A stretch of 42,138 nucleotides of DNA, taken from contig JBDRBI010000034.1 of the NCBI GenBank assembly GCA_043822885.1, positions 1 to 42,138 on the forward strand, read 5' to 3'. Positions 1 to 14,420 of the stretch are shown piece by piece. The notes under the pieces were generated by a model, which was not told the DNA's origin, searched no databases, and saw only the letters and a list, made by a program, of their open reading frames with translations. The stretch is from Candidatus Omnitrophota bacterium. Lineage in GTDB: Bacteria; Omnitrophota; Gorgyraeia; Tantalellales; Tantalellaceae. The position numbers were made by a program, and so were the translations under genes. The stretch's first letter is position 1; every line of letters begins with the position of its first letter.

Positions 1-50
1 ATCCAGACCGCTTACGTAGTCAGGTCTGGATTCAGGACAAGGTTTAAATT

Positions 51-82
51 ATAGAGATTGCTTCGCTACGCTCGCAATGACG
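51..82. repeat. Right half of a GTCATTGCGA...TCGCAATGAC palindromic element
   Basis: ATAGAGATTGCTTCGCTACGCTCGCAATGACG is identical to 12627-12658; a variant lies at 17104-17142. Confidence 0.85.
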
Positions 83-116
83 AGAGTGAGGATAAGGTTC
101 GAGTTAAGGAATGGTG

Positions 117-134
117 CCCCGGGCATGCCCGGGG
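117..134. repeat. Perfect 18-bp palindrome
   Basis: CCCCGGGCATGCCCGGGG. Confidence 0.6.
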
Positions 135-152
135 AGAACCAAAAATTTTTTC

Positions 153-181
153 TTGACAAACTTGGCGCGGGATGATATTCT
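153..181 (+). promoter_or_regulatory. Sigma70-type promoter for the sulfur operon
   Basis: TTGACA-17 bp-TATTCT with an extended TG. Confidence 0.7.
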
Positions 182-211
182 ACTTATTGTCTGCAGAGAA
201 ATAGGAGAATT

Positions 212-646
212 ATGCTTGTTGGAAAAACCAGTTACTATGTGTTGAAAGTTGTTCTATTTTTTGCGTTCAGCAAAAGGGATTCTTTTTCCATAAAAGAGAT
301 ATCTAAGAGATTGGAGGTCTCGGAAAAAATACTGGAGCAGGTGCTCCTACTACTAAAAAATAAAGGTATACTAGCGAGTAAAAGAGGACCTCAGGGTGGA
401 TATTGGCTTATCGCGGATATATCCGAGTGTACGCTTTTAGACGTTATGTACATGTCGGGAAGAAAATTCGATATTATGCCCATAAATGTTGAGGTCAAGG
501 AGAACATCATAGGGGAGATCGTTGAGGACATAACACTGGACCTGGAGAAGAAGATCGTTGAAGAATTTAAAAAAATAAAAATTAAAGATATATTGTTCTC
601 CATAAAGAAAAAAGTGACCAAAAAGGGTTTGAGTTATACCATATAG
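212..646 (+). CDS. Rrf2-family transcriptional regulator (CymR-like)
   Basis: wHTH 'IKEISKRLEVSEKILEQVL' and wing 'SKRGPQGGY'; no IscR Cys triad; heads the cys/met genes. Confidence 0.85.
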   Translation: MLVGKTSYYVLKVVLFFAFSKRDSFSIKEISKRLEVSEKILEQVLLLLKNKGILASKRGPQGGYWLIADISECTLLDVMYMSGRKFDIMPINVEVKENIIGEIVEDITLDLEKKIVEEFKKIKIKDILFSIKKKVTKKGLSYTI

Positions 647-664
647 TACGGTGAATAAGAAATA

Positions 665-788
665 GTCACCAGGTCACCAGTCACCTAGTCACCAGTAGGA
701 TAGAAGCGAGAGGCGAGAGGGTAGAAGGGAGAAAAAACATAGTAGATCGGTCAATCACTATGAACTACGAACTATGAACTATTAACTA
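665..788. repeat. Short tandem repeat cluster (GTCACCA/GTCACCTA, TAGAAGC/GAGAGGC and ACTATGA families)
   Basis: gtcaccaggtcaccagtcacctagtcaccag at 665-695; tagaagcgagaggcgagagggtagaagg at 701-728; actatgaactacgaactatgaactattaacta at 757-788. Confidence 0.85.
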
Positions 789-802
789 AACAGGAGGAAG
801 AA

Positions 803-2104
803 ATGAGCGGACAGAAATGGAATGCGGGAACGATCGGGCTGCATGGAGGATATACTCCTGAGGCAACGACGGGAGCGAGAGCCGTTCCCATATATCAGAC
901 AACATCTTACGTTTTTAAAGATACGGAAGACGCCGCCGATCTTTTTGCTTTGAAAAAATTCGGGAATATTTATTCCCGGATAATGAACCCCACTGTAGAC
1001 GTTCTGGAAAAACGAATTGCCGCGCTGGAGGGAGGTGCGGCTGCTTTGGGTACCGCTTCGGGACAAGCCGCTATCACTATCAGCGTATTGAACCTTGCTT
1101 CCTGTGGGGATGAAATCGTTTCTTCCGGAAGTTTATACGGAGGAACATACACTCTCTTTAGTTCAACGCTGCGTAAACTCGGCATCAATGTTAAATTTGT
1201 GGACTCTACGGATCCTGAAAATTTCCGTAAAGCCATAACAAAAAAAACTAAATTAGTATATGCGGAAACATTTGGAAATCCGAAGCTCGATACTCTTGAT
1301 ATAGAGAAAGTCGCTAAGATAGCGCATGAGAACGGGATACCTTTGGTAATAGATAACACCGTAGGAACGCCGTTTTTAGTTAATCCCATACGTTACGGGG
1401 CGGATATAGTCGTGCATTCTACGACCAAATACATAGGGGGAGCCGGGACTTCGATCGGAGGAGTTCTTGTAGATTCGGGTAAATTCAACTGGGCTAACGG
1501 GAATTTTCCGCAGTTCACCGAACCTGATCCCACTTATCATGGTGTAAAGTTCATGGAAAGTTTCGGTAATGTTCCCGGGATGGGGAATATCGCGTTTGCG
1601 ATAAGAGCGCGCGTAAGCCTCTTAAGAGATATGGGCGGATGCATGAGCCCTTTCAACGCGTTCTTATTTCTTCTGGGACTGGAAACGCTTCATCTGCGCA
1701 TGCCCAGACACAGTGAGAACGCTAAAGAAGTCGCGCTGTTCCTGGAAAAGCACAATAAAGTCACATGGGTAAATTACCCGGGACTTAAGAGTCATCCGCA
1801 GTATGCTCTGGCTGAGAAATATTTTAAGAACGGATGGTATTCCGGGATCCTTGGATTCGGAATAAAGGGAGGCTTAGAAGCGGGGAAGAAGTTCATAAAT
1901 TCATTAGAACTTTTCAGTCATCTCGCTAATATCGGTGATGCCAAGAGTTTGGCGATACACCCGTCTTCTACTACGCATCAGCAGCTTACACGTGAAGAAC
2001 AGGAAGAAGCCGGAGTTACCGAGGATTTCGTCAGATTATCCCTTGGGATAGAGGACATAAAAGATATAATCAAGGATCTGGAGCAAGCGCTTTCTAAGGT
2101 GTGA
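803..2104 (+). CDS. metY: O-acetylhomoserine aminocarboxypropyltransferase (sulfhydrylase)
   Basis: [19 protein letters not shown] Lys motif [26 protein letters not shown]; RBS AGGAGG. Confidence 0.93.
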
Positions 2105-2167
2105 CCCGTGACCCGCCTGCCCCCGGAGGGGGTGTCCCGGGACACGGCCGAACAAGGGAGTTGGATG

Positions 2168-3100
2168 ATGAAAATTTATGATGATATTACTAAGACGACC
2201 GGTAACACGCCGCTGATACGGCTTAACAGGATAGGGTCAGACTTGCCCGGGAAAATTATCGTAAAGGCGGAGTTCTTTAATCCTTTATCCAGCGTTAAAG
2301 ATCGTATAGGAGTGGCTATGTTGAACGCGGCCGAAAAAGAAGGAAAAATAAAAAAAGGCACGGTTATAATAGAGCCGACCAGCGGGAATACGGGTATAGC
2401 TCTGGCGTTTGTAAGCGCAGCAAGGGGGTATAAACTGATACTCACGATGCCGGATACGATGAGTTCCGAGAGAAGGGCATTGCTCAGGATATTGGGAGCC
2501 GAGATCGTTCTTACTCCCGGAGAGAAAGGAATGAAGGGTGCGGTAGAAAAAGCCGAAGAACTGGTAAAAAATACCGAAAAAGCTTTTATGCCCCAGCAAT
2601 TTAATAACGAAGCGAACCCTGCCATTCACAGAGAAAACACCGCGCGGGAGATATGGGATGATACGGACGGTACCGTGGACATATTTGTAGCGGGAATCGG
2701 GACCGGCGGAACGATCACGGGTGTAGGAGAAATGCTTAAAGAGAAAGATCCCGGGATCAGGATCGTGGGCGTTGAACCTGAAGGTTCACCGGTTCTTTCC
2801 GGGGGAAATCCCGGTCCTCATAAGATACAAGGTATAGGCGCGGGTTTTATCCCTAAGGTCTTGAAAAAAGAGCTAATAGATGAGATAATAACGATCTCCG
2901 ACGAGGAAGCCGGAGAGTACGCGCGCAGACTTGCCAGAGAGGAAGGACTTTTAGTAGGCATATCCGGAGGAGCTAATGTCGCGGCAAGTATTCGCATTGC
3001 CGAAAGGAAAGAAAATAAAGGAAAGAATATTGTTACGATCCTCCCGGATGCCGGAGAAAGATATTTGAGTACGTGGCTTTTCGAGGGGTATCTGGACTAA
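2168..3100 (+). CDS. cysK: Cysteine synthase A
   Basis: [42 protein letters not shown]; start moved to ATG 2165/2168 after GGGAG because the ORF-track N-terminus runs through a hairpin. Confidence 0.95.
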
Positions 3101-3175
3101 AAGTTTTTCTCGGGCTTTCGGACGGCGGCAAGACTTCAGGATGCGTGAAAATATCGATCCAACAAGATCTCAGGG

Positions 3176-4330
3176 ATGATAATGACTAAAAAAGATAAAA
3201 CTAAAAGTGTAGGCGAGGCAGAAACAAAATATTACAATCTGCCTAACGGTAAAGAATTTGTCCTGGAAAGCGGAATAAAACTTAAAGGCCTTAAAATAGC
3301 TTATGAGACTTACGGAAAGCTAAATAAAGAAGCTTCAAATGCTATCCTCATCTGCCACGCGCTTTCCGGGGACGCTCATGTTGCCGGCTATCATTCGGGA
3401 GAAAAGAAGCCCGGGTGGTGGGAAGATATGGTAGGACCGGAGAAAGCGTTTGATACCGATAAATATTTTGTGATATGTTCTAATGTAATAGGCGGATGCA
3501 AAGGTTCCAGCGGTCCGAATTCAATAGATCCTTCCACAGGTAAACCTTACGGACTTAGTTTTCCGATCGTGTCAATTAAAGATATGGTGAATGCTCAGAA
3601 AGAACTGGTCGAGCAGCTAGGCATTAAGAAACTGCTTTCAGTATGCGGCGGATCTATGGGCGGTATGCAGGCTCTACAATGGTCGGTATTGTACCCCGAG
3701 ATCACTTTTTCCTGCATTCCTATCGCGACGACCTATAAACACTCGGCACAGCAAATAGCCTTTGATGAAGTGGGAAGACAGGCCATAATGTCCGACCCGG
3801 CATGGAATGGAGGGGATTATTACGAGAAAGAGCATCCTTCGGCCGGACTTGCGGTAGCGCGCATGATAGGACATATAACGTACATGAGCAATAGTTCTAT
3901 GGAACAAAAATTCGGACGTATGCTTAAAAAAGAGAAACTCGGATATGAGTTTTCCGCCGATTTTGAAGTAGAGGGATATTTGCGCTACAGGGGCGACAGT
4001 TTTGTTAAACGATTTGACGCCAATTCTTACCTTTATATCACCAAGGCAATGGATTATTTTGATCTGCAGAGTAAGGGAAGCCTGCAGCAGGCATTTAAAG
4101 GCGTTAAGACCCGGTTTTTGATCATTGCGTTCAGCTCGGATTGGATATATCCGCCTTTTCAGTCGAAGGAGATCCTGAAAGCCCTTAAGATGAACGGTAT
4201 AGATGTTACTCATTGCGAGATCAGCTCGGATTACGGACATGACGCGTTTCTTCTGGAATTTGAAGAAGAAACCAAACTGATAAAACATTTTTTAACAAGC
4301 ACAAAAAAGAAATTGGATAAAGAAATATGA
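3176..4330 (+). CDS. metX: Homoserine O-acetyltransferase
   Basis: CHALSGD, nucleophile [21 protein letters not shown]. Confidence 0.93.
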
Positions 4331-4929
4331 CCGGTAAAATAAAAGAAGAATTAAGATTAGACCATAAGATCATCGGTGAAATGGTGGAAGCCGGATCAAG
4401 GGTGATAGATATGGGCTGCGGAGACGGAGACCTTTTGGAATATCTTGTTTTAAATAAAAAAGTGGATGGGACTGGGGTCGAGATAAACGAAAGAGCCATC
4501 TATCAATGTGTAGAGAAGGGACTCAGCGTGTCACACGGAGATATCGATTCGGGTCTTAAGGAATATCCGGAGGATGTTTTTGATTATGTGATATTTAATC
4601 AGACAATGCAGCAAATACATAGACCCAAAGAGGCTATACTTGAGGCGCTGAGAATAGGGGCCAAAGTTATAATAGGGTTCCCCAACTTTTGTTATCTAAA
4701 CGCGCGCATTCAGCTCTTTTTCAAAGGACATGTGCCCGTAACTCCTTCTTTGCCTTATTCCTGGTATGATACTCCCAATCTTCATTTCCTGAGCATAAAA
4801 GATTTTAAACGGTTCTGCCAAAAACAAGGTATAAAAGTAGAGAAGAGTGTTTTTCTCAATGAAAAAGGCAAGATCAGGATCCTTCCGAATCTTTTTGCGC
4901 TGAACGCTATCTTTCAGATATCGAAATAA
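4327..4929 (+). CDS. metW: Methionine biosynthesis protein MetW
   Basis: SAM motif [19 protein letters not shown]; ATGA overlap with metX. Confidence 0.9.
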
Positions 4930-4938
4930 GACAGGGTT

Positions 4939-7900
4939 ATGCAGACCGATACATTCCAAAAACATTATAACTTACTGAACAGCGAACAGAGAGACGCCGT
5001 AGATACGATCGATGGTCCTCTTCTTGTTCTTGCGGGACCGGGTACGGGCAAGACACAGCTTTTATCGGTACGCGCCGCAAACATCCTTAAAAAGACGGAA
5101 GTCCTTCCCGAGAACATATTAATACTTACATTTACGAATGCCGCGGCTAGAAATATGCGAGAAAGGCTTGCCGGGATCCTGGGGTATGACGGATACAATG
5201 TTGTAGTGGAAACCTTTCATAGTTTCGCGAATTCAATAGTATTGGAGTCGGAAGGGGCGATAAAATATGTCAAAGATAAAATAGAGATAAACGAAGTAGA
5301 AAAAGTAAGGGCTTTCGAATATATTTTAGACAACATAAAGGGAGTAGAAGCGCTAAGACCGTTTGGGGCGCCGTACATACACCGCAGGGAGATCGAAAAA
5401 AGAATAAGCGAGCTGAAGAACGAAGGTATAGCACCCGAAGAGTTTAAGAATAGTCTGAAGAACATTAAAGCGGATGGAATTATTCTTGAGGATAAACACA
5501 TTGAACGTTTAAAGGCTTTGTCCGCAACATATGAGACATACGAAAAACTTAAAGATGAAGACTCTTCTGTGCTTTTTGATGAGAGGGGACGCAGAGATTA
5601 TGACGATATGATACTTATCGCTATAGATGTGCTGAGGGAGGACCCTCTTGTTAGAAAAGCATTTACCGAACAATTCAAATACATAATGATAGACGAATTT
5701 CAGGATACAAACGGCGCTCAGCTTAAACTGTTGTTCCATCTCCTTGGGCAGGAAAAGAATAATCTTTGCTGCGTAGGGGACGATGACCAGTCAATTTTTA
5801 GGTTTCAAGGCGCGACGCTTTCTAATTTTCGGGATATTGAGAAAAAACTACCCTCTTTGAAAACGATAATCCTTAAAGACAATTATAGGTCCTGTGAGGA
5901 AATAATAAGGCTTTCGGATAAAATAATATCTCAGTTACCTCCTAACGAACGTATAGATATAAAAGAGCTTAGAAGTAAGCGCAAATACAAGAATAGAGCA
6001 ACGCGGTTTTTAGAGTTTTCTACGGAAGAAGAGGAGCTTTTATTTTTGACGGGTGAGGTAGAGCGTCAAGCGGAGCTGATGCGCGCGGATGATTCTCTCA
6101 GCGAAGAAGAAAGAAAGAACCCTTTTAACAATATGGCCGTACTTGTCAGGAAAAGAGCCCAGATACTGAAGATCATTGATATGTTCCTTAAGGCGGGAAT
6201 CCCTTACGCTACGGACGGGGAGGAGGATATTCGCGGAGAAAAACGCGTAAAACAGATGTTGGATGTACTTCACTTGGCCGGGGCTTATTCGGAAAGAGAC
6301 CAAAGCAGAGACATAGTATTGTACCGGATATTGGTTTCGGATTACTTCAATATACCTCATACGGACGTTATTAACTTTGTGGGCTTTGTAGCTAAAAAGA
6401 AAAAAACGGCACACAAGGACAATATAGGTAAAAATAAAACAATAGATCTATTTCAGGAATTTCAGGCACAGTTCGGGATCTTTGAAAAAGATATGAACGG
6501 AGAGGCCGTCTTTCCGACAAAAAAAATATCCGAAGGGCTTTCCATACAAAAAGAGCTGGAGTTCAAAGATCCGCATGCTTTGCATAAAGCCGGATGGGCC
6601 ATTACCAGACTCGTCGTAGACGCAGGGAACAGGCCTGTACATGATCTCGTAATGCGGTATATCGAAGATACGGGCTTGTACCGGTTCATTCTCAAACGGT
6701 ACGAAAATGACAAAGTTCTAAGAGTCAGAGAATTCAGGGCGCTTACATCTTTTGTGACCGCTATTAAGAAAGCGGATCTGGCGGATCCGGCTTTGAGGCT
6801 GGACGACTTTATTAAAGAACTTAATCTGCGAGATATGCATAATATGCCTATAAGAGGAGAGCTGGCAACATTTACTCAGGACGGAGTAAGGATCTATACC
6901 TCTCACAAGTCCAAGGGGCTTGAGTTTTACACTGTTTTTGTTCCGTTTTGTCTGCAGGGTAAAAGCTGGCCGATAAGAAAAAAAGCGGATACCATTCCTC
7001 TTCCTCCGGAGATCTACAAAATCAAGGAAAAGGCGGAAGACAAAAATAAACTTAAGTTACTGGATCTTTATGATGAAACGCGTTTATTTTATGTGGCGTC
7101 AACCAGAGCAAAAGCGAATTTATTCTATACGGCCACACCCAAAGAAAAAGTCATTGCGAGTCCCTTTTTGGGAAAAATGGGGCTTCCCGTGGAAAAAGGG
7201 ATGCCGGCAGATGAAGAAAAATTTTTAATAAAAGTTTTAAGGACAAAGAGGTCCGAAGATACATTCCTAGGCATGGAAGGTGTACTAAAAGACATTATCT
7301 CTGATCTTACCATAAACCCTACGAGTCTCAATAATTACATATCCTGTAAAAGGAAATTTTTGTACGATAATGTATTGAGATTGCCGGGCAGGAAAAACCA
7401 GCATCTAACCTTTGGTAATTGCGCTCATGAAGCACTGGAAGAGGTCTATGAGGAATTTATGGACAAAAAAAGTTTTCCGTCATTTGCGTTCTTTAAAAAT
7501 ACCTTTCTGACGGAATTGGAATATCAGGGGGTAAGTGACGAAATAAAAATATGGTGCAAAGACCGCCTCAATACACTTGAGAAATGGTATGATATAGAGA
7601 AAATACATCCGATAATGCCGATAGCGCTGGAAAATAAACTTGAAATATCCATCAAGGGAGGTCCGTATTTTAGAGGAACTTTCGATAAAATAGAAAAAGA
7701 CGGGGAGAACATGATAAGGGTAGTAGACTACAAGACCGGCAAGCCCGACAAACATGTGAAGGCGATCGAAGAATGCCGGGACATAGAGAGTTCTGAATGC
7801 GATGATTATTACCGTCAGCTCGTAGCCTATAAGATGCTGTATGAGCGTTCGGGTGTTGATAAAGACGGCAGGAAGGTAAGAAGCGGAGTGCTTCAGTTTT

Positions 7901-8121
7901 TAGAACCGGTAGGACGAGAAGTAAAAAAGTACGACCTCAGAAAAGGGGAATATAAGAACATAAGCCTAGAACTTACGGATGATATGGTCGAGAGTTTGGA
8001 AAAACTGATAGTAAACTGTTGGAAAAACATACAATCTCTTGATTTCGAGAAATTGAAAGAAAGAGACAGTAAGGATAAATGCGTAAGATGCGAGTACGAT
8101 AGTATTTGTTGGGAAGGGTAG
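4939..8121 (+). CDS. UvrD/PcrA-family SF1 helicase fused to a C-terminal PD-(D/E)XK nuclease
   Basis: AGPGTGKT, IDEFQD, VGDDDQSIFRFQGA, NYRS, HKSKGLEF, RLFYVASTRAK; nuclease GTFDKIE...VVDYKTG, QLVAY; Cys ...CxxCxxxxxC. Confidence 0.9.
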   Translation: MQTDTFQKHYNLLNSEQRDAVDTIDGPLLVLAGPGTGKTQLLSVRAANILKKTEVLPENILILTFTNAAARNMRERLAGILGYDGYNVVVETFHSFANSIVLESEGAIKYVKDKIEINEVEKVRAFEYILDNIKGVEALRPFGAPYIHRREIEKRISELKNEGIAPEEFKNSLKNIKADGIILEDKHIERLKALSATYETYEKLKDEDSSVLFDERGRRDYDDMILIAIDVLREDPLVRKAFTEQFKYIMIDEFQDTNGAQLKLLFHLLGQEKNNLCCVGDDDQSIFRFQGATLSNFRDIEKKLPSLKTIILKDNYRSCEEIIRLSDKIISQLPPNERIDIKELRSKRKYKNRATRFLEFSTEEEELLFLTGEVERQAELMRADDSLSEEERKNPFNNMAVLVRKRAQILKIIDMFLKAGIPYATDGEEDIRGEKRVKQMLDVLHLAGAYSERDQSRDIVLYRILVSDYFNIPHTDVINFVGFVAKKKKTAHKDNIGKNKTIDLFQEFQAQFGIFEKDMNGEAVFPTKKISEGLSIQKELEFKDPHALHKAGWAITRLVVDAGNRPVHDLVMRYIEDTGLYRFILKRYENDKVLRVREFRALTSFVTAIKKADLADPALRLDDFIKELNLRDMHNMPIRGELATFTQDGVRIYTSHKSKGLEFYTVFVPFCLQGKSWPIRKKADTIPLPPEIYKIKEKAEDKNKLKLLDLYDETRLFYVASTRAKANLFYTATPKEKVIASPFLGKMGLPVEKGMPADEEKFLIKVLRTKRSEDTFLGMEGVLKDIISDLTINPTSLNNYISCKRKFLYDNVLRLPGRKNQHLTFGNCAHEALEEVYEEFMDKKSFPSFAFFKNTFLTELEYQGVSDEIKIWCKDRLNTLEKWYDIEKIHPIMPIALENKLEISIKGGPYFRGTFDKIEKDGENMIRVVDYKTGKPDKHVKAIEECRDIESSECDDYYRQLVAYKMLYERSGVDKDGRKVRSGVLQFLEPVGREVKKYDLRKGEYKNISLELTDDMVESLEKLIVNCWKNIQSLDFEKLKERDSKDKCVRCEYDSICWEG

Positions 8122-8123
8122 TG

Positions 8124-8380
8124 CGAGAGGCGAGAGCAGAAAAAAAGTCACCCCCGGCTGCCTTCTTTTGGGGCATATGGCCGGGGCAGGCAGGTCACCT
8201 AGTCACCAGTCACCAGGTCACCGTGGGATAAAGCTAGAAAATATAAGCTCTTGAGTTTGTCGTTATGAGTCCATGTTTTCTGGGTATAGCGTTTAGAGCT
8301 CAGCATTTTTGTCTTTTGTCTATCTTCTAGTTTCTCGCATCTATCTTACTGGTGACTAGGTGACCGGTGACTAGGTGACA
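8124..8380. repeat. Intergenic inverted bracket of GTCACCA arrays with an inserted GC-rich palindromic module
   Basis: GTCACC arrays at 8147-8222 and TGGTGAC arrays at 8349-8379; module 8147-8195 is the reverse complement of 29888-29937. Confidence 0.85.
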
Positions 8381-8447
8381 CAACTAACGTAGTTTATATT
8401 TGTGTAATGTGAGTACGATATTGAAATGTAGGCGGGAGGGAGATGTT

Positions 8448-9458
8448 ATGGAGAAGAGATTTATTCAGGATATTAAGGTTAATGAACAGATCGACTCTGT
8501 TTTCATGCTTAGGAAAAAGAATCTGAAACTTACAAAATACGACAAACCTTATTTAGAAATAGGACTTTCCGACAAGACCGGGAAGATAGAAGGGCGCCTG
8601 TGGGATGACGCGCATAAATATAACGAAGTAGCGGAGACCGGTGATGTTATCAGGGTACGCGGGACGGTAGACAAATATCGCGAGGAAAAGCAAATTAAAG
8701 TTGATGCTATCGATAAAGCGGACGACCGGTCATATAAGTACGAGGACATGGTCCGTGTCGCGGAAAACAGGGATAAAATACTGAACAATATCAACACTTA
8801 TCTCAAGGCCATAAAAAATCCATGGATACTTGCTCTTGCGGAAAAATTTCTAGAGGATAAGGATCTTATTCATGCTTTCGAAGAAGGAGTAGGGGGGAAA
8901 AGCTGGCATAACGCGTATATCGGCGGATTAATGGAACACACGTATGAAGTTATGTACATTTCGGATAAAATATGCGAGTTATATCCCGACGCGGACAGAG
9001 ATGTGGCCGTTTTCGGAGCATTTGTTCACGACATAGGAAAAGTCAAAGAGATCGATCCTCGGAAATTAGAATATACGTCCGAAGGAGGGCTCCTTGGACA
9101 TATAGCTATAGGTTATCAGATATTGAGCGAGAAGATGACGGATATCAAGGATTTTCCGGAAGATCTCAAACTTCGCTTGGGTCATATTATTTTGAGCCAT
9201 CACGGAGAATATGAACAGCAGTCTCCGGTTTTGCCTAAGACGCTGGAATCTACCATAGTTTATCAAACGGATGAGCTGGTATCCCAGACCAATGCCGTTA
9301 AAGAGATACAAGTAAATCAAGCCGAAGAGGGCAAAGTTTGGAGCGATTTCGTTTTTATAAAAAACCGTAAATATTTTATTAAAAAAGCTGAAGATGAAGA
9401 TTGGAAACAAAACCCCGATGAAGAGAAGCCCTCTCCCGAAGATCTGTTTGGTGAATAA
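8448..9458 (+). CDS. yhaM: 3'-5' exoribonuclease YhaM/Cbf1 family (OB-fold + HD)
   Basis: N-terminal OB fold (DKTGKIEGRLWD), WHNAYIGGLMEHT, HDIGK, SHHG; ATG 8448 after GGAGGGAG. Confidence 0.85.
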   Translation: MEKRFIQDIKVNEQIDSVFMLRKKNLKLTKYDKPYLEIGLSDKTGKIEGRLWDDAHKYNEVAETGDVIRVRGTVDKYREEKQIKVDAIDKADDRSYKYEDMVRVAENRDKILNNINTYLKAIKNPWILALAEKFLEDKDLIHAFEEGVGGKSWHNAYIGGLMEHTYEVMYISDKICELYPDADRDVAVFGAFVHDIGKVKEIDPRKLEYTSEGGLLGHIAIGYQILSEKMTDIKDFPEDLKLRLGHIILSHHGEYEQQSPVLPKTLESTIVYQTDELVSQTNAVKEIQVNQAEEGKVWSDFVFIKNRKYFIKKAEDEDWKQNPDEEKPSPEDLFGE

Positions 9459-9460
9459 GT

Positions 9461-9873
9461 AACAGTTTAAAAGTCTAAGGTCTTTAAAAAGTCACCAGTC
9501 ACCAGGTCACCTAGTCACCAGTTTATAGATGCGAGAAGATAGAGAGTAGAGGGGAAACGTAAAAAAAGTCACCTAGTCACCAGTCACCTAGTCACCAGTT
9601 TATAGATGCGAGAAGCGAGCGGATAGAGAGAGTCACAGAGTCATCGTTCGCTTCGCTCTCTAGAGTCAATATTTTGCCGCTGACTCTTTGCCTCTCTGAC
9701 CCTCTGACTCTTATTCCCCGCATCAGTCGATCACTCATAACTCTGAACTCTCTCGCATCTCGCTTCTAACTTCATTTTTTTATTCAACTGGTGACTATGT
9801 GACTAGGTGACTGGTGATTTGCGGGTTAAAACCCGCACTACATTCTGGTGACTAGGTGACTGGTAACTAGGTC
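9461..9873. repeat. Composite nested repeat region between convergent genes
   Basis: Two GTCACC arrays (33-bp exact duplication 9506-9538 / 9583-9615), AGAGTCA/TGACTCT 8-mers, two TGGTGAC arrays; 9638-9689 matches the reverse complement of 29815-29867. Confidence 0.9.
9820..9841 (-). repeat. GTAG-type REP
   Basis: Minus strand GTAG-TGCGGGTT-TT-AACCCGCA. Confidence 0.7.
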
Positions 9874-9884
9874 AAGTTTCAATT

Positions 9885-10811
9885 TTACGGTGAGACTTTG
9901 ACTTCGTCGATATATGCGAATCCTGAGTAGGGCATACCGTTAGAGGTAATCCTTAACGCGATCTTGCGGATGTCTTTCCTGAAAGCGTCATCAATTTTCG
10001 TTCTTTTCCAATCGATACTGCCTTCGGAAATATCAGCGGTTATTGTCGTCCATTTTCCGGGGATGAGCTTCACAGTGTGAGACATTTCCACAAAATTCCA
10101 AGTATCGCTTGTTGTCAAAATAATTTCCCCGCGCAGGCGATCTGTCGCGTCCGGTGGAAGATAAATTTTTGCCGATATAGTCCTATATTCGCTCAGATCC
10201 AAATAACGCTGGTTTTCGATAAGAGCCGCGGACCATATTCCGGGAATAAATTCGGCATAGATCCTTGCGCTGCTTTTTCCCGAGCTTGAAATGTTACTTA
10301 CGGATTCCAAGGATACCGCCACATGATCCGGTTTTTCAGTGGCCCAAAAAGGTATTTCCCATCCATCATCACCGTTCTCAAAATCGTAAAGGACGGTCTC
10401 TTTTCCGGATATCTCCGGAAAGGGGAGGGATAAGCTTGTGGTCATAATACCGGGGACTACTGCCTTCTGCACGTCCTGCGCGACGTTGACCGGAGTTGTC
10501 TCGAGGTTTACGCTGAATATCAGGCGCTCATGCGCTAAAAACCAGATTATAGAAAGTACCAGCCCCGCGAGGAGCGCAACAGTAATGAAAAAAGGCCGCA
10601 ATCTTCCCATGACCACTACCGCATCTACGAGAAAAGATCTAAATTTTCTGGAAGACCTTTTTTTGTGATCTTTTTCCGCGGGAGCTTGGGAGTTTTTTGG
10701 CGCGGAGAGAGAAACTCCTTTGAGGTCGATGGTACGCAACGTATTTCCAAAATACGTTTTAGAAAGCTCTTCATCAATTTTGTCGCGGGTTCTGCTTTTA
10801 TTCATGGACAT
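9885..10811 (-). CDS. Bitopic membrane protein with a C-terminal galactose-binding-like/CBM beta-sandwich domain
   Basis: Basic N-terminal tail, one TM (FFITVALLAGLVLSIIWFL), 'VLYDFENGDDGW', 'LDLSEY', 'GKWTTITAD', 'YIDEVKV' typical of Ca-binding CBM jelly-rolls. Confidence 0.7.
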   Translation of the reverse strand: MSMNKSRTRDKIDEELSKTYFGNTLRTIDLKGVSLSAPKNSQAPAEKDHKKRSSRKFRSFLVDAVVVMGRLRPFFITVALLAGLVLSIIWFLAHERLIFSVNLETTPVNVAQDVQKAVVPGIMTTSLSLPFPEISGKETVLYDFENGDDGWEIPFWATEKPDHVAVSLESVSNISSSGKSSARIYAEFIPGIWSAALIENQRYLDLSEYRTISAKIYLPPDATDRLRGEIILTTSDTWNFVEMSHTVKLIPGKWTTITADISEGSIDWKRTKIDDAFRKDIRKIALRITSNGMPYSGFAYIDEVKVSP

Positions 10812-10876
10812 ATTTTAACATAATACCGCAAGTGTGGATACAGAAATCCGCACTCCATTAAAATGGTTATTTTTAT

Positions 10877-10904
10877 TTGCAGCATCATGATAATATGATA
10901 TAAT
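10877..10904 (+). promoter_or_regulatory. Sigma70-type promoter for parA-CBM
   Basis: TTGCAG-16 bp-TATAAT with an extended TG. Confidence 0.55.
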
Positions 10905-10929
10905 CTTCGCAATAACAAAAGGGGTGTTT

Positions 10930-11973
10930 ATGAAAATCATTTCTGTTGCTAATCAAAAAGGCGGTTGTGGTAAAACAACTTTGGCTGTTAACACGGCAGC
11001 TACTTTGGCTAAGCTGGGAAAAGAAACACTGCTCATAGATCTTGATCCTCAAGGACACGCGACTTTCGCCTTAGGATACGGTAGAGAACTACCTGAAAGA
11101 AAAACCTCTTATGATATTTTTCGTTCACATTTTGACAGAACAGAAGTCCCTTTCGACGAACTTTTGGTGAGTAACAGAGAAAAACTATCGTTTATCCCCG
11201 CGAATATGATGCTGAGCGCCGCGGAAATCAATCTAGGCGGAGTAAACGGGGCGGCAGCGATCTTATACCGCACATTGTCGGACCCTTATTTTAATAAATA
11301 CGAGTATGTGGTTATAGATTCACCTCCGAGTTTCGGGTTCCTGACTTTGAATTCCATGTATGCGGCCGATGTAATACTTGTTCCGATCGATCTTAGCTAT
11401 TTCTCTTTTAACGGGATCAACGGACTATATCGAGTTATGGGGCTTTTGAAAGAGGAAACCGGCCGGGATCCGTCAATACTGTTTGTCATGAATATTTTTG
11501 ATAAGCGGTCAAATTTTGCCAAACAGTTAGAAGCAGATGCGAAGAAACGGCTGGGGTCGTATCTTTTGACATCCAAGATCAGATCTAGTGTACGTCTAAG
11601 GGAAGCCGCAAGTTTGGGGAAGACAATATTTGAAAAAGATCCGAAGAGTTCCGCCGCGTTGGATTTTTACAATTTGACCAGTGAACTGTTGAGCTCCGAG
11701 AATAGAGATGCAAAAGTAAGCGTCAGAGAATTCTCTCTTCATGCTCCCAAGGCCGGGTCTGTATACGTTCTGGGAGATTTTAATGGATGGAAGAAGTCAG
11801 AGGCGACACATCTTTCCAAGCTCGAAAGCGGAGAATGGACGGCGTATTTTACCCTCGATAAAGGGCGGTATCGTTATAAATTTCTGGTAGATAATGAATG
11901 GATAAACGATCCCCGCAATCAAGAGACGGAACGGAATGTTTTTGGAACTTCTGATTCGGTTCTTGAAATATGA
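10930..11973 (+). CDS. ParA/Soj-family ATPase fused to a C-terminal glycogen-binding CBM48/AMPK-beta-like domain
   Basis: NQKGGCGKTT, IDLDPQG, IDSPPSFG, IRSSVRLREA; C-terminus 'VYVLGDFNGW...GEW...L.KGRYRYKFLVDNEWINDP.N...FG..DSVLEI'. Confidence 0.9.
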   Translation: MKIISVANQKGGCGKTTLAVNTAATLAKLGKETLLIDLDPQGHATFALGYGRELPERKTSYDIFRSHFDRTEVPFDELLVSNREKLSFIPANMMLSAAEINLGGVNGAAAILYRTLSDPYFNKYEYVVIDSPPSFGFLTLNSMYAADVILVPIDLSYFSFNGINGLYRVMGLLKEETGRDPSILFVMNIFDKRSNFAKQLEADAKKRLGSYLLTSKIRSSVRLREAASLGKTIFEKDPKSSAALDFYNLTSELLSSENRDAKVSVREFSLHAPKAGSVYVLGDFNGWKKSEATHLSKLESGEWTAYFTLDKGRYRYKFLVDNEWINDPRNQETERNVFGTSDSVLEI

Positions 11974-12103
11974 CCGTTTTCTAAAAGTTTTTCCGATATA
12001 AAATAAAAATTTTTTTAAATGATTAAGGATTTTAAGTCCCTGCAGATCTTGATTTTGGATCTTTAATTTTGGATTTTTAATTTTGTCTTTTGGGTCTCCA
12101 AAC

Positions 12104-12511
12104 ATGCCTATTTCCTCCTCCAAAGAAAAAGCTCTTAAAGAAAAGATGAGACATCTTGGTATCAAAGAGTCTGATCTTACGGAGCGTTTCATAAGGTCTT
12201 CCGGACGCGGCGGCCAGAATGTGAACAAAGTGTCCACCTGTGTTTACCTTAAACATAATCCCAGCGGGATAGAAGTGAAATGCGGCAGAGAGAGATCCCA
12301 GATACTTAATAGGTTCTTGGCCAGAAGGATCCTGTCGGACAAGATAGAACAAATTAAACTTGGAAAGGCTTCCGAAAAAAGAAAGAGCATAGAGAAAATA
12401 CGAAGGCAAAAGAGAAAAAGGTCAAAAAGGGCGAAAGAAAAGATGCTTGATACGAAGAAGAAACGGGGTGCGGTTAAAAAGCTGAGAAAAAGCGTAACAG
12501 GGGAAGAATAG
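12104..12511 (+). CDS. GGQ-domain ribosome-rescue peptidyl-tRNA hydrolase (ArfB-like)
   Basis: RSSGRGGQNVNKV, RSQxxNR, basic C-terminal tail. Confidence 0.8.
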   Translation: MPISSSKEKALKEKMRHLGIKESDLTERFIRSSGRGGQNVNKVSTCVYLKHNPSGIEVKCGRERSQILNRFLARRILSDKIEQIKLGKASEKRKSIEKIRRQKRKRSKRAKEKMLDTKKKRGAVKKLRKSVTGEE

Positions 12512-12557
12512 AAGCGAGATTAGAGTTAGGTTGTGTAAAGGAGAATCGTCTCGAATT

Positions 12558-12657
12558 GTCATTGCGACCCCCGCTGCTCCGCTTTGTGGAGCAAAGCGAC
12601 GGGGGGAAGCAATCTGTTCTACGATCATAGAGATTGCTTCGCTACGCTCGCAATGAC
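12558..12657. repeat. Complete 100-bp branched palindromic element (RPE-like GTCATTGCGA family)
   Basis: GTCATTGCGA/TCGCAATGAC termini; internal GAAGCAATCT/AGATTGCTTC and CCCCG/CGGGG stems. Confidence 0.85.
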
Positions 12658-12683
12658 GCGAGTTGTAGTATTTTAAACTAGTT

Positions 12684-12726
12684 AGACTTTAGACTTTAGA
12701 CCTTAGACTTTAGACCGTCAGACCGT
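12684..12726. repeat. AGACTTT heptamer array
   Basis: agacttt agacttt agacctt agacttt agaccgt c agaccgt. Confidence 0.8.
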
Positions 12727-12736
12727 TTATAAAAAC

Positions 12737-14293
12737 ATGGCTAATAATAAAAGAGAGGGTTGGGGTTCTCGACTGGGCATGATAATGGCTGTCGCGGGAT
12801 CGGCAGTTGGGCTGGGGAATTTTCTTAGGTTCCCGGTCCAGGCCGCGAAAAATGGCGGCGGAGCTTTTATGGTGCCTTACTTTGTGGCGCTCCTTGTGGT
12901 GGGTATACCTCTTATGTGGATAGAATGGTCCATAGGACGTTATGGAGGAGGACTGGGGCATTCGACCGCTCCGGGAGTTTTTCAAAGTTTATGGAAAAAG
13001 AACCGCTTCATAAAGTATTTCGGGATAGTAGGTATCTTCGGTCCTTTGGTAATAATGGTTTATTACACGTATGTAGAATCCTGGACACTTGCGTACAGTT
13101 TCTTTTCGCTTGCGCAAAAGTACGGCGGCATTACAGACCAGCTTTCTATGCAAGCCTTTTTAAGGGGGTTTCAGGGGCTGGAAAAAAATCAATATTTTTC
13201 CAGCATCGCCACAGCATATGTTTTTTTTCTTATCACGTTTGTTGTCAACATGGTTGTTCTGAATCATGGGATACGCGGAGGAATAGAAAGATTTTGTAAA
13301 TTTGCCATTCCGACATTATTTATATTCGCGGCTATATTAGCGATAAGGGTGCTATCGTTGGGGGCGCCTTTAGCGGATCATCCGGATTGGAACGTGGTAA
13401 ATGGACTAGGGTATTTATGGAACCCGGATTTTACCCAGCTTAAAAATGCTAAAGTCTGGCTGGCCGCTACCGGGCAGATATTTTTCACTCTTAGCATAGG
13501 GATGGGGGTTATTCTCACATATGCCAGTTATCTAAAAAAAGGAGATGACGTAGCATTGTCGGGACTTACCGCGGTAAGTATGAACGAAACGGCCGAAGTT
13601 ATACTCGGGGCAAGCATAATCATACCCGCGGCGTTTATTTTCTTTGGGCCGGCAGCTATAGGAAGTATAGCCGAATCAGGAGCGTTCAATTTAGGATTTG
13701 TAACAATGCCTCTTATCTTTGGAAAGATGCCTCTTCCGGAGGTGATGGGATTCCTTTGGTTTGGGCTTTTGTTCCTTGCGGGAGTTACTTCATCGGTTTC
13801 TATGGCTCAGCCCGCGATAGCTTTTCTTGAAGATGAGTTCAATGTCACTAAAAGGCAAGCGGTGCTGATATTAGGCGCTGCGATGTTCCTATTATGTAAC
13901 GCGGCCATATTTTTTTTCAGGTATGGAGTGGTAGACGAACTGGATTTTTGGGGAGGAACATTTTGTTTAGTGCTCTTTGCCACATTCGAAGTTATCCTTT
14001 TTGGATGGATCTTCAATATCAACCGTGCTTGGGAAGAGGTGCATCACGGGGCAGATATGAAGATCCCCGGGTTTTATAAACATATAATCAAATACGTGAC
14101 CCCGACCTTCCTCATAATATTGTTAGCGGCATGGTTCTTACAGGAGTGGCTACCGATAATACGGATGGAAAATGTCTCGGAAATTGACCGTCCTTATGTC
14201 CTAGCTACACGTATAGGATTAGGGATGATCTTCCTTATATTGGCATTACTGGTAAAGCACGCTTGGAAAGTTCGGGGAAAAGAAATAGTTTAG
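12737..14293 (+). CDS. Sodium-dependent transporter, NSS (LeuT-like) family
   Basis: AGSAVGLGNFLRFP, GGGAF, W..A.GQIFFTLSIG, AGVTSS; about 12 TMs. Confidence 0.93.
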   Translation: MANNKREGWGSRLGMIMAVAGSAVGLGNFLRFPVQAAKNGGGAFMVPYFVALLVVGIPLMWIEWSIGRYGGGLGHSTAPGVFQSLWKKNRFIKYFGIVGIFGPLVIMVYYTYVESWTLAYSFFSLAQKYGGITDQLSMQAFLRGFQGLEKNQYFSSIATAYVFFLITFVVNMVVLNHGIRGGIERFCKFAIPTLFIFAAILAIRVLSLGAPLADHPDWNVVNGLGYLWNPDFTQLKNAKVWLAATGQIFFTLSIGMGVILTYASYLKKGDDVALSGLTAVSMNETAEVILGASIIIPAAFIFFGPAAIGSIAESGAFNLGFVTMPLIFGKMPLPEVMGFLWFGLLFLAGVTSSVSMAQPAIAFLEDEFNVTKRQAVLILGAAMFLLCNAAIFFFRYGVVDELDFWGGTFCLVLFATFEVILFGWIFNINRAWEEVHHGADMKIPGFYKHIIKYVTPTFLIILLAAWFLQEWLPIIRMENVSEIDRPYVLATRIGLGMIFLILALLVKHAWKVRGKEIV

Positions 14294-14307
14294 CTTGCTG
14301 AAAAAAC

Positions 14308-14420
14308 GCACAGGGCATAGGGCATAGAGCATAGTGTTAAAGTAAGGGTTCGAGATAACGATTCTTATTGCTGTAATGCTATGCGCCATGCTCTTTGCTC
14401 TATGCAATTTATGCGAGCTA
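14308..14420. repeat. Inverted GCATAGG/CTATGC heptamer arrays
   Basis: gcacagggcatagggcatagagcatag at 14308-14334 faces ctatgcgccatgctctttgctctatgc at 14379-14405; 14379-14420 is similar to 15779-15820. Confidence 0.8.

Follow-up and report, generated by a model that had tools for sequence, protein, structure and literature searches.

P-loop ATPases of the ParA/MinD superfamily organize chromosomes, plasmids, carboxysomes, chemoreceptor arrays, flagella and division sites. Glycogen is, to our knowledge, the commonest bacterial carbon store, and the placement and inheritance of its granules appear to be essentially unstudied. For another storage body, polyhydroxybutyrate (PHB), PhaM-type proteins, which are not ATPases and contain no carbohydrate-binding module (CBM), link the granules to the nucleoid for even inheritance. 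Here we describe two head-to-head genes in a 42,138-nt stretch of DNA, hereafter the window, which is contig JBDRBI010000034.1 (C34 in our numbering) of the Candidatus Omnitrophota bacterium assembly GCA_043822885.1. One of them encodes an orphan ParA-type ATPase with a C-terminal CBM48 module (10924..11973, + strand) and the other a bitopic membrane protein, called the partner below (9885..10811, − strand). The two genes are a real and widespread ParA-type system that is present in several phyla. We put it at slightly less than an even chance that the pair is dedicated to organizing glycogen stores, with the ATPase holding glycogen and a peptide of the partner controlling the ATPase. Any resemblance to PhaM would be functional, and is hypothetical only.

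The closest relatives of the ATPase in sequence and structure are the Soj/ParA proteins of the Soj/ParA–Spo0J/ParB systems, with which it shares the deviant Walker A motif with its signature lysine and aligned surface Arg/Lys residues. It differs from the ParABS ATPases in the absence of an adjacent parB, in a score below the ParA_partition cut-off of NCBIfam, in the Walker A cysteine (104/110 family representatives) and in the extra C-terminal CBM48. Membership in ParABS or in the BcsQ family was ruled out by the missed cut-offs together with the lack of an adjacent parB.

A second parallel is the carboxysome system McdA/McdB. There, too, an orphan ParA-type ATPase stands beside a small partner that evolves fast and belongs to no broad family, and the nucleoid is presumed to be the matrix over which a non-DNA cytoplasmic body is distributed; McdA (PDB 6noo) matches residues 1–195 of the window ATPase with an E-value of 7.8e-15. 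In McdAB, however, cargo binding falls to the partner; in the system described here the putative cargo-binding module is part of the ATPase. The window partner also has a distinct N-terminal motif, a transmembrane (TM) helix and a CBM-like domain that is probably external, and the putative cargo is a polysaccharide granule rather than a protein shell. The C-terminal domain of the ATPase finds its best solved match in the CBM of the AMPK beta subunit, with the equivalents of W100, K126, W133 and G147 conserved, but here the module is joined to a bacterial P-loop ATPase, where AMPK has a kinase scaffold subunit. Unlike CBM27 and the other type-B CBMs that it resembles, the beta-sandwich of the partner is not attached to a glycoside hydrolase; its anchor is a TM helix on the N-terminal side, preceded by a tail that is predicted to be cytoplasmic. 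By analogy, the system would work most like McdAB-type cargo positioning, with a partner of no described family. Neither a ParA with a glycogen-binding domain nor ParA-based glycogen positioning was described in the literature searched, which left most subscription journals outside and is therefore no proof of novelty.

The ATPase and its CBM48 module

Read from the GTG at 10924, the ATPase gene encodes 349 aa; translation probably starts at the ATG at 10930, however; this gives 347 aa up to the stop at 11971–11973 and matches the database homologs of about 347 aa. The ParA/Soj-type core occupies 10930..11694 on the + strand (residues 1–255 of the 347-aa form). It contains the deviant Walker A sequence KGGCGKT at residues 10–16 (nt 10957–10977), which fits the ParA/MinD superfamily pattern KGGxGK[ST] with its N-terminal lysine, the Walker A' aspartates D37/D39 and the Walker B residue D130. 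A first-pass annotation, made from the letters of the window alone, had recognized a Soj-like ATPase with a deviant Walker A and arginines at Soj-aligned positions. Indeed, KGGCGKTT, FDKRSN and SVRLRE are all present in the translation, and Pfam assigns residues 3–234 to AAA_31 (E 5e-43; 147.5 bits against a cut-off of 27) and CbiA (5.6e-17; 62.3 against 25.4). In phmmer comparisons with the PDB, residues 2–255 match ParA 8ray (5e-36), Thermus Soj 1wcv (4e-35) and Helicobacter pylori Soj (1e-31), and the AlphaFold2 model of the protein has a mean predicted local distance difference test (pLDDT) of 90.6.

Conservation was assessed in 110 scanned representatives, one per 50%-identity cluster, taken from the best 150 of 53,377 search hits, most of which are ordinary ParAs. 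AAA_31 and AMPK1_CBM occur together in 110/110. Residues K10, K15, D37, D39 and D130 are invariant in all 110, and the Walker A cysteine, C13, found in 104, is a signature of the family. The basic residues noted in the first pass are also retained: R193 in 101/110, K/R222 in 87/110 and K/R224 in 91/110 align with conserved arginines of Soj/ParA structures and are candidates for non-specific DNA binding. According to a review (PMC9178275), Soj contacts non-specific DNA through surface arginines. Judged by its motifs, the ATPase is catalytically intact and of the ParA/Soj type.

None of the partition, MinD and BcsQ cut-offs of NCBIfam was reached by the ATPase. The ParA_partition score was 110.3 bits against a cut-off of 180, RepA, SopA and PrgP were far short of theirs, and cellulose_yhjQ (BcsQ) gave 74.7 bits against 157.85. 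The Pfam family CBP_BcsQ exceeds its cut-off on the ATPase (27.3 vs 21.3 bits), spanning only the shared P-loop core (residues 3–153). There are no bcs genes among the four Pfam-scanned neighbors in the window, the remaining genome not having been searched for bcs.

The C-terminal CBM48/AMPK-beta-type module (11716..11970, + strand; residues ~263–347) is delimited by Pfam and PDB matches. The first-pass reading of an intact module, based on GDFNGW, YRYKFLVD and W.NDP, was upheld by the translation and by a hidden Markov model (HMM) check in which both Pfam profiles exceeded their cut-offs over residues 269–348, namely AMPK1_CBM (4.1e-12; 46.6 bits vs 26.8) and CBM_48 (1.8e-7; 31.8 vs 22.4). 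The last 85 residues match the AMPK beta1/beta2 CBM in the PDB with E-values of about 3e-7, and NCBIfam returned a weak match to a T9SS plug protein over the same region. In the alignment, W100, K126, W133, L146, G147 and N150 of AMPK beta1 correspond to W287, K317, W324, F338, G339 and D342 of the window protein. Among the representatives, the tryptophan at 287 is present in 110/110, K/R317 in 108, W324 in 108, G339 in 106 and N/D342 in 102; the L146 position is occupied by F/Y in most family members, and the N150 position by Asp in the window protein. According to a review (PMC6274970), AMPK beta1 loses glycogen binding in the mutants W100G and K126Q and binds less in W133L and G147R; the same review and PMC2642990 present the AMPK beta CBM as a regulatory glycogen sensor. 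The glycan-binding signature is thus kept, and the module is predicted to bind glycogen. Across the family, 27 to 382 residues separate the ATPase core from the CBM tryptophan, as would fit a module on a flexible tether. AMPK-beta-type CBMs also occur as repeat arrays in P0121 (1812 aa), P0164 (1409 aa), P0206 (1436 aa) and P0236 (1337 aa), which have no ParA core and match the query CBM48 in 7 to 18 stretches.

The fusion is widespread. More than 100 database clusters align at 60–80% identity, the named ones being all Candidatus Omnitrophota and the closest named homolog coming from Ca. Aadella gelida (80%). The database names for the architecture are generic ('AAA family ATPase', 'chromosome partitioning protein', 'Soj (modular protein)'). 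In a survey of 301 sampled Omnitrophota species genomes, at least 76 have a full-length contiguous match to the fusion. It is present in 17/18 genomes of the window's family, the exception being the genome labelled G053 (in our handles G stands for genomes, C for contigs, L for loci, f for families and g for genera). AMPK1_CBM itself is found in 260/301 genomes, a count that takes in small stand-alone CBM genes. Named fusion loci elsewhere come from Nitrospirota/Leptospirillia and from Gammaproteobacteria (Thiogranum, Ectothiorhodospiraceae), and further ones from many Planctomycetota (Tepidisphaeraceae, Phycisphaerae), Latescibacterota and Methylomirabilota. The family also contains protein atlas clusters in which Krumholzibacteriota and Thermodesulfobacteriota are the commonest phyla, and the complete genome of a cultured planctomycete, Fontivita pretiosa B-254, encodes the fusion.

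The partner and its adjacency to the ATPase

The partner has 308 aa as an open reading frame (ORF) and 306 aa in its database form, which starts at the ATG at 10805. Its AlphaFold2 model comprises a short helix (residues 9–19), a disordered basic stretch (24–52), a single TM helix (58–92; 10530..10634, − strand) and a C-terminal CBM27-like beta-sandwich (137–305, pLDDT >90; 9891..10397, − strand). The short helix lies within a conserved motif, D-x-I-D-x-E-L-S-K-T-Y-F-G (residues 8–20; 10746..10784, − strand), which is predicted to be helical and cytoplasmic. Across 33 aligned sequences L14 and F19 of this motif are invariant and I10, E13 and Y18 are present in at least 90%; it is followed by a variable basic stretch and the TM helix and then, after a spacer that also varies, by a conserved domain of ~170 residues. 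There are 44 clusters of homologous partners, of which the named ones are all Omnitrophota or a candidate genus taken as such. The first-pass description of a bitopic protein with a basic N-terminal tail and a CBM-like domain therefore held for the membrane topology class and the sandwich, and needed revision for the tail, whose conserved part is the helix at 8–20 while the basic stretch varies.

In Foldseek comparisons the sandwich resembles 1wky (1.1e-9), the CBM27 structure 1pmh (1.7e-8) and 1of3 (8.6e-7), i.e., the CBM27/CBM11/CBM28 folds. The Pfam scan of the partner gave only a sub-threshold match to Mann_GBD_bact (21 bits vs a cut-off of 27), and many of its homologs have weak precomputed hits to PF21253/PF09212. 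The tail ahead of the TM helix contains 10 K+R against 3 D+E, compared with 2 against 3 in the stretch after it, and paralogs of the sandwich domain with a signal peptide or lipobox occur in the same genome (contig C125) and in G053. Because of this basic tail and these paralogs, the motif is placed in the cytoplasm and the sandwich outside; the partner is thus probably N-in/C-out, with an extracytoplasmic sandwich. The paralogs stand in tandem (C125 3797–4516 and 4526–5143; G053 contig C21, locus L093, 707–1405 and 1492–2076) with a larger gene alongside, and the CBM27-like domain family is expanded and secreted in both genomes. G053, the family member without the fusion, has no tail-bearing partner, just the secreted paralogs of the domain.

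Adjacency of the two genes was followed through three gene orders. First, in the window's own family the divergent partner adjoins the ATPase gene in 16/16 evaluable loci; this proves little alone, because the whole four-gene block is syntenic there. Second, in other families of the class the partner lies upstream on the same strand. More distant fusions (33–44% identity) have a bitopic partner of 225–280 aa in this position in 12/12 evaluable loci, with an N-terminal motif of the type Q-E-Q-L-A-E-I-Y-F-S, a TM helix and, at the C-terminal end, a domain that gives weak CBM30/CBM11 hits. Forty further Omnitrophota loci were examined by motif pattern, in which 24 fusion loci of the same class and 13 of other classes were recognized. 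A partner is present in 21/24 of the same-class loci (20 upstream, 1 downstream), the 3 loci without one all belonging to family f2, and the motif variants of the upstream partners include IYDHLAKVYLGK or MYEYLAKTYFEP. Third, in other phyla the partner lies downstream. From 80 outside-phylum loci, 71 were evaluable for a gene starting −60 to +250 nt from the ATPase stop, its first 70 residues being considered. A motif-bearing gene was found in 54/71 of them vs 49/1950 own-genome ORFs (2.5% background). The motifs read ISHLFLS, ISQYFLS, IARLFLD or LAELYLT, and several of the misses are near-variants.

The bodies of these outside-phylum partners are entirely different. They are soluble proteins of 260–650 aa; those of the 12 loci inspected have 260–600 aa and no TM segment, and the six scanned have no Pfam family, bar one weak ParA-like trace. 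Thus, the first-pass proposal of the TM-CBM protein as the partner stood as far as a conserved motif-bearing neighbor is concerned, but the TM and CBM parts proved lineage-specific. In Planctomycetota (L140 5370–6971 of Fontivita pretiosa; downstream genes of L113–L179) the partners have 470–650 aa and no Pfam family, with a proline/arginine-rich stretch after the motif and a conserved C-terminal end. As a lead only, they may have a degenerate MinD/ParA-like fold, to judge from the protein atlas and from one weak CbiA hit (L158).

Since adjacency outlasts three arrangements and a complete change of the partner body, the two genes are best read as a functional pair with the N-terminal peptide as the shared interface. 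The adjacency record is strong evidence for such a pair, and it makes the link to the divergent gene firmer than could have been known from the window alone. Many partners have an Arg or Lys a few residues ahead of the motif. The activating peptides of ParB, ParG and MinE carry a comparable Arg/Lys. A predicted complex of two ATPase copies with partner residues 1–40, in which ATPase and partner had separate alignments, scored 0.30 against a mark of 0.32, which speaks neither for nor against binding.

Several points tell against a single conserved pair of this kind. In the other Omnitrophota classes an adjacent partner was found in 0/13 recognized fusion loci. The enrichment in other phyla is partly post hoc, because the motif pattern was written after examples had been seen. 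The surveyed genomes are related, so that the counts, which are not corrected for phylogeny, are not independent. Sequence homology between the window-type and the other partners is marginal: an HMM of 9 distant-tier partners gave no match to the window partner at E ≤ 10. With low to moderate support, hhalign aligned the window partners with the distant-tier ones over the N-terminal motif and TM helix (62% probability, E 7.6e-5) and, from small alignments, with other partners over the C-terminal end (35% probability), and an HMM of 28 other-family partners ranked the window partner first of 8044 own-genome ORFs (E 0.038). With homology only marginal, the partner types are best described as sharing an architecture and a motif, and as probable but unproven remote homologs.

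The same record raises the question of whether the partner, and not glycogen, is the cargo or target. In that case the ATPase would position or regulate the partner, which is a membrane protein with a probably external glycan-binding domain in Omnitrophota and a large soluble protein elsewhere. The CBM48 would be a sensor of glycogen or maltodextrin levels comparable to the AMPK beta CBM, through which the state of the carbon store would tune a process of the envelope, of division or of surface polysaccharides. Positioning of membrane-associated protein clusters by ParA/MinD ATPases is known from ParC/PpfA, PomZ and FlhG. What is constant across phyla is the ATPase with its motif-bearing partner, glycogen genes being seldom adjacent, and Pfam CBP_BcsQ is above its cut-off in 110/110 family members. 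The sensor role of the AMPK module (PMC6274970, PMC2642990) points the same way. Nevertheless, a partner body that is wholly different by lineage, bitopic and CBM-like here and soluble with 260–650 aa elsewhere, is awkward for one conserved cargo, the NCBIfam BcsQ model is missed by a wide margin, and envelope or division genes are not consistently adjacent in the inspected loci. We therefore regard the partner as an unlikely cargo, although this is the main rival reading, and retain the glycogen-organizing pair as the preferred explanation.

The setting of the two genes bears on a more conventional possibility, that of a second DNA-partition ATPase serving a chromosome region or mobile element, with the neighbor binding the centromere, or serving as adaptor, in an unconventional way. 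ParA/Soj partition ATPases are indeed the best matches in the PDB and NCBIfam, and the Arg/Lys residues at the Soj-aligned positions are conserved. Furthermore, a MerR-family helix-turn-helix (HTH) gene lies directly upstream of the ParA-CBM48 gene in five inspected Nitrospirota/Gammaproteobacteria loci (L100 3418–3900, PF13411, 1.2e-15; L103 3419–3907; L106 3356–3940; L108 3347–3940; L111 3439–3900), and an HTH_17 domain is fused in 1/110 family representatives. Yet the ATPase is below every NCBIfam partition cut-off, and the partner is predicted to sit in the membrane with its beta-sandwich outside. Neither ParB nor HTH domains were found in the Pfam-scanned window neighbors, which are a UvrD/PD-(D/E)XK helicase-nuclease, an HD+OB-fold protein, an RF-1-domain protein and an SNF transporter; these flanking genes have no tie to partition. 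The sole ParB_N match of the genome (a 1.55-Mb assembly, 92% complete) is on contig C89, adjoining a second, higher-scoring ParA. Because the canonical parA–parB thus sit separately, the ParA-CBM48 ATPase is an orphan, as the first-pass annotation had supposed from the lack of a neighboring parB. With a chromosomal locus among housekeeping neighbors, family-wide synteny, a genome already provided with parAB and an invariant CBM48 left unexplained, a role in DNA partition is highly improbable. A mobile-element or plasmid partition gene was ruled out by the chromosomal synteny across the window's family. Chance ORFs or an artefact were dismissed given more than 100 conserved homolog clusters and a confident model, as was a split or fused mis-assembly given the same single-frame architecture in hundreds of independent assemblies.

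Both ORFs are where the first pass had placed them, head to head, and the gap between them, put there at about 120 bp, measures 112 nt (10812..10923). This divergent region has overlapping promoter-like sites facing both genes. By consensus scan, the + strand site at 10876–10904 (TTTGCA-17-TATAAT, with TG) scores 10/12 and the − strand site at 10918–10890 scores 9/12; the region has 8 such sites vs 4.1 ± 2.1 in shuffles, all of them consensus matches only.

Glycogen metabolism and the proposed role

The small genome that contains the window is rich in genes of alpha-glucan metabolism. It encodes a glycogen phosphorylase and a GT5 synthase, has several GH13 genes in a cluster and gives five GH57 matches. 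GH57 and GT5 are fused in the synthase, one frame of 1025 aa (contig C83, 539–3613) whose N-terminal half is the GH57 part; the same fusion is seen in genomes of family f1 in frames of 1025–1046 aa. Five GH13-family frames (618–1113 aa) and a GH57 frame (829 aa) lie on one strand of contig C51 (~44–14418), and probably encode enzymes of glycogen/trehalose interconversion.

Two kinds of gene neighborhood connect the system, or its module, with these enzymes. First, in 5/70 Omnitrophota loci, from five families, the partner and ATPase genes are directly preceded on their strand by a GH57 gene (PF03065, 3.9e-68). The stand-alone GH57 proteins of the five families are 37–41% identical to the GH57 half of the C83 fusion. 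Second, a stand-alone AMPK1_CBM gene (~95–130 aa) lies immediately upstream, on the same strand, of a glgA/GT5 gene in at least 13 genomes (G188 C116, G180 C97, G110 C75, G076 C18, G050 C101, G048 C26, G114 C186, G168 C12, G140 C7, G134 C16, G106 C1, G040 C1 and G022 C10). In G053 (contig C5; L098 1429–2936, Pfam-checked), a 115-aa CBM gene is followed without a gap by a 386-aa GT4/GT5 transferase. The arrangement suggests that the stand-alone gene supplies the synthase with a free glycogen-binding subunit.

These neighborhoods are relevant to another reading of the CBM48-like domain, namely that it is a protein–protein module, for example a dock for the partner helix, which binds no glycan and belongs to an ordinary ParA-like positioning pair. 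Its Ig-like beta-sandwich fold is often reused to bind proteins, the CBM in the AMPK holoenzyme also packs on the kinase domain, and across phyla the domain is found together with the partner motif; the weak T9SS plug protein match may be counted here as well. On the other hand, conservation within the domain is highest at the positions critical for glycogen binding in AMPK (W287 100%, K/R317 98%, W324 98%, G339 96%), stand-alone paralogs sit directly upstream of glycogen synthase genes, and GH57 genes adjoin the pair in 5 loci. A module without glycan binding is accordingly quite improbable, and the glycogen-holding ATPase remains the reading that we prefer.

With GT5 presence scored at E 1e-20 across the 301 Omnitrophota genomes, AMPK1_CBM was found, by our own reading of the rows, in 249/275 GT5-positive vs 11/26 GT5-negative genomes. 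Within this phylum the fusion is not common in genomes that lack glycogen pathways, a finding that would have refuted the first-pass proposal, GT5 being present in 249/260 CBM-positive genomes.

A number of observations weigh against a role in glycogen storage. The co-occurrence test is weak because GT5 is nearly universal (275/301 genomes), and 11 CBM-positive genomes have no GT5 match. Three of these are 92–95% complete: G268, from the window's own genus (92% complete, with a full-length fusion at 80% identity), G205 and G258 (genus g82). They may have another type of synthase or truly lack glycogen synthesis. Conversely, whole families have GT5 without AMPK1_CBM (f5, 0/5 for AMPK1_CBM vs 5/5 for GT5; f8, 0/3 vs 3/3; f10, 0/5 vs 4/5). 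Since these families hold glgA without AMPK1_CBM, the system is dispensable for glycogen metabolism. Glycogen genes within ±4 kb were found in just 5/70 Omnitrophota loci and in 0/80 outside-phylum loci. Omnitrophota cells are, moreover, reported to be very small, and active positioning is less obviously needed in them. Finally, in a table of PMC8542988, Ca. Aadella gelida is entered under trehalose and not glycogen synthesis, an entry that the lack of a GT5 match in G268 fits.

We propose the following scheme for how such a pair could act. Upon binding ATP the ATPase would dimerize, and the ATP-bound dimer would bind nucleoid DNA non-specifically. The tethered CBM48 would let the ATPase itself hold alpha-glucan, i.e., glycogen granules. 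The N-terminal helix of the partner, in the cytoplasm, would dock on the ATPase and either trigger hydrolysis or recruit it, setting its ATP cycle or its location. As the output, glycogen bodies would be tethered to, or distributed over, the nucleoid and released or recruited at the partner. In the window's lineage, the inner-membrane anchor and the external CBM27-like domain of the partner may add a spatial or sensory input; in other phyla the partner would act as a soluble protein. The most complete form of the proposal, in which a glycogen-dedicated ParA pair, spread over Omnitrophota and, among named loci, at least five other phyla, has an ATPase bearing its own cargo module, unrelated partners share one N-terminal control peptide, and the Omnitrophota partner couples internal glycogen to glycans outside the cell, is doubtful and offered tentatively.

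The hypothesis is open to direct testing because a cultured carrier exists, Fontivita pretiosa B-254, in which both genes are present (locus L140). If true, this would be the first ParA-based organizer of a polysaccharide storage body, together with a new class of ParA-regulating peptide. Its design variant, in which the ATPase and not an adaptor holds the cargo, bears on models of ParA-gradient transport. If, instead, the CBM has a sensing role, the pair would give bacteria a counterpart to the AMPK-style sensing of glycogen stores.

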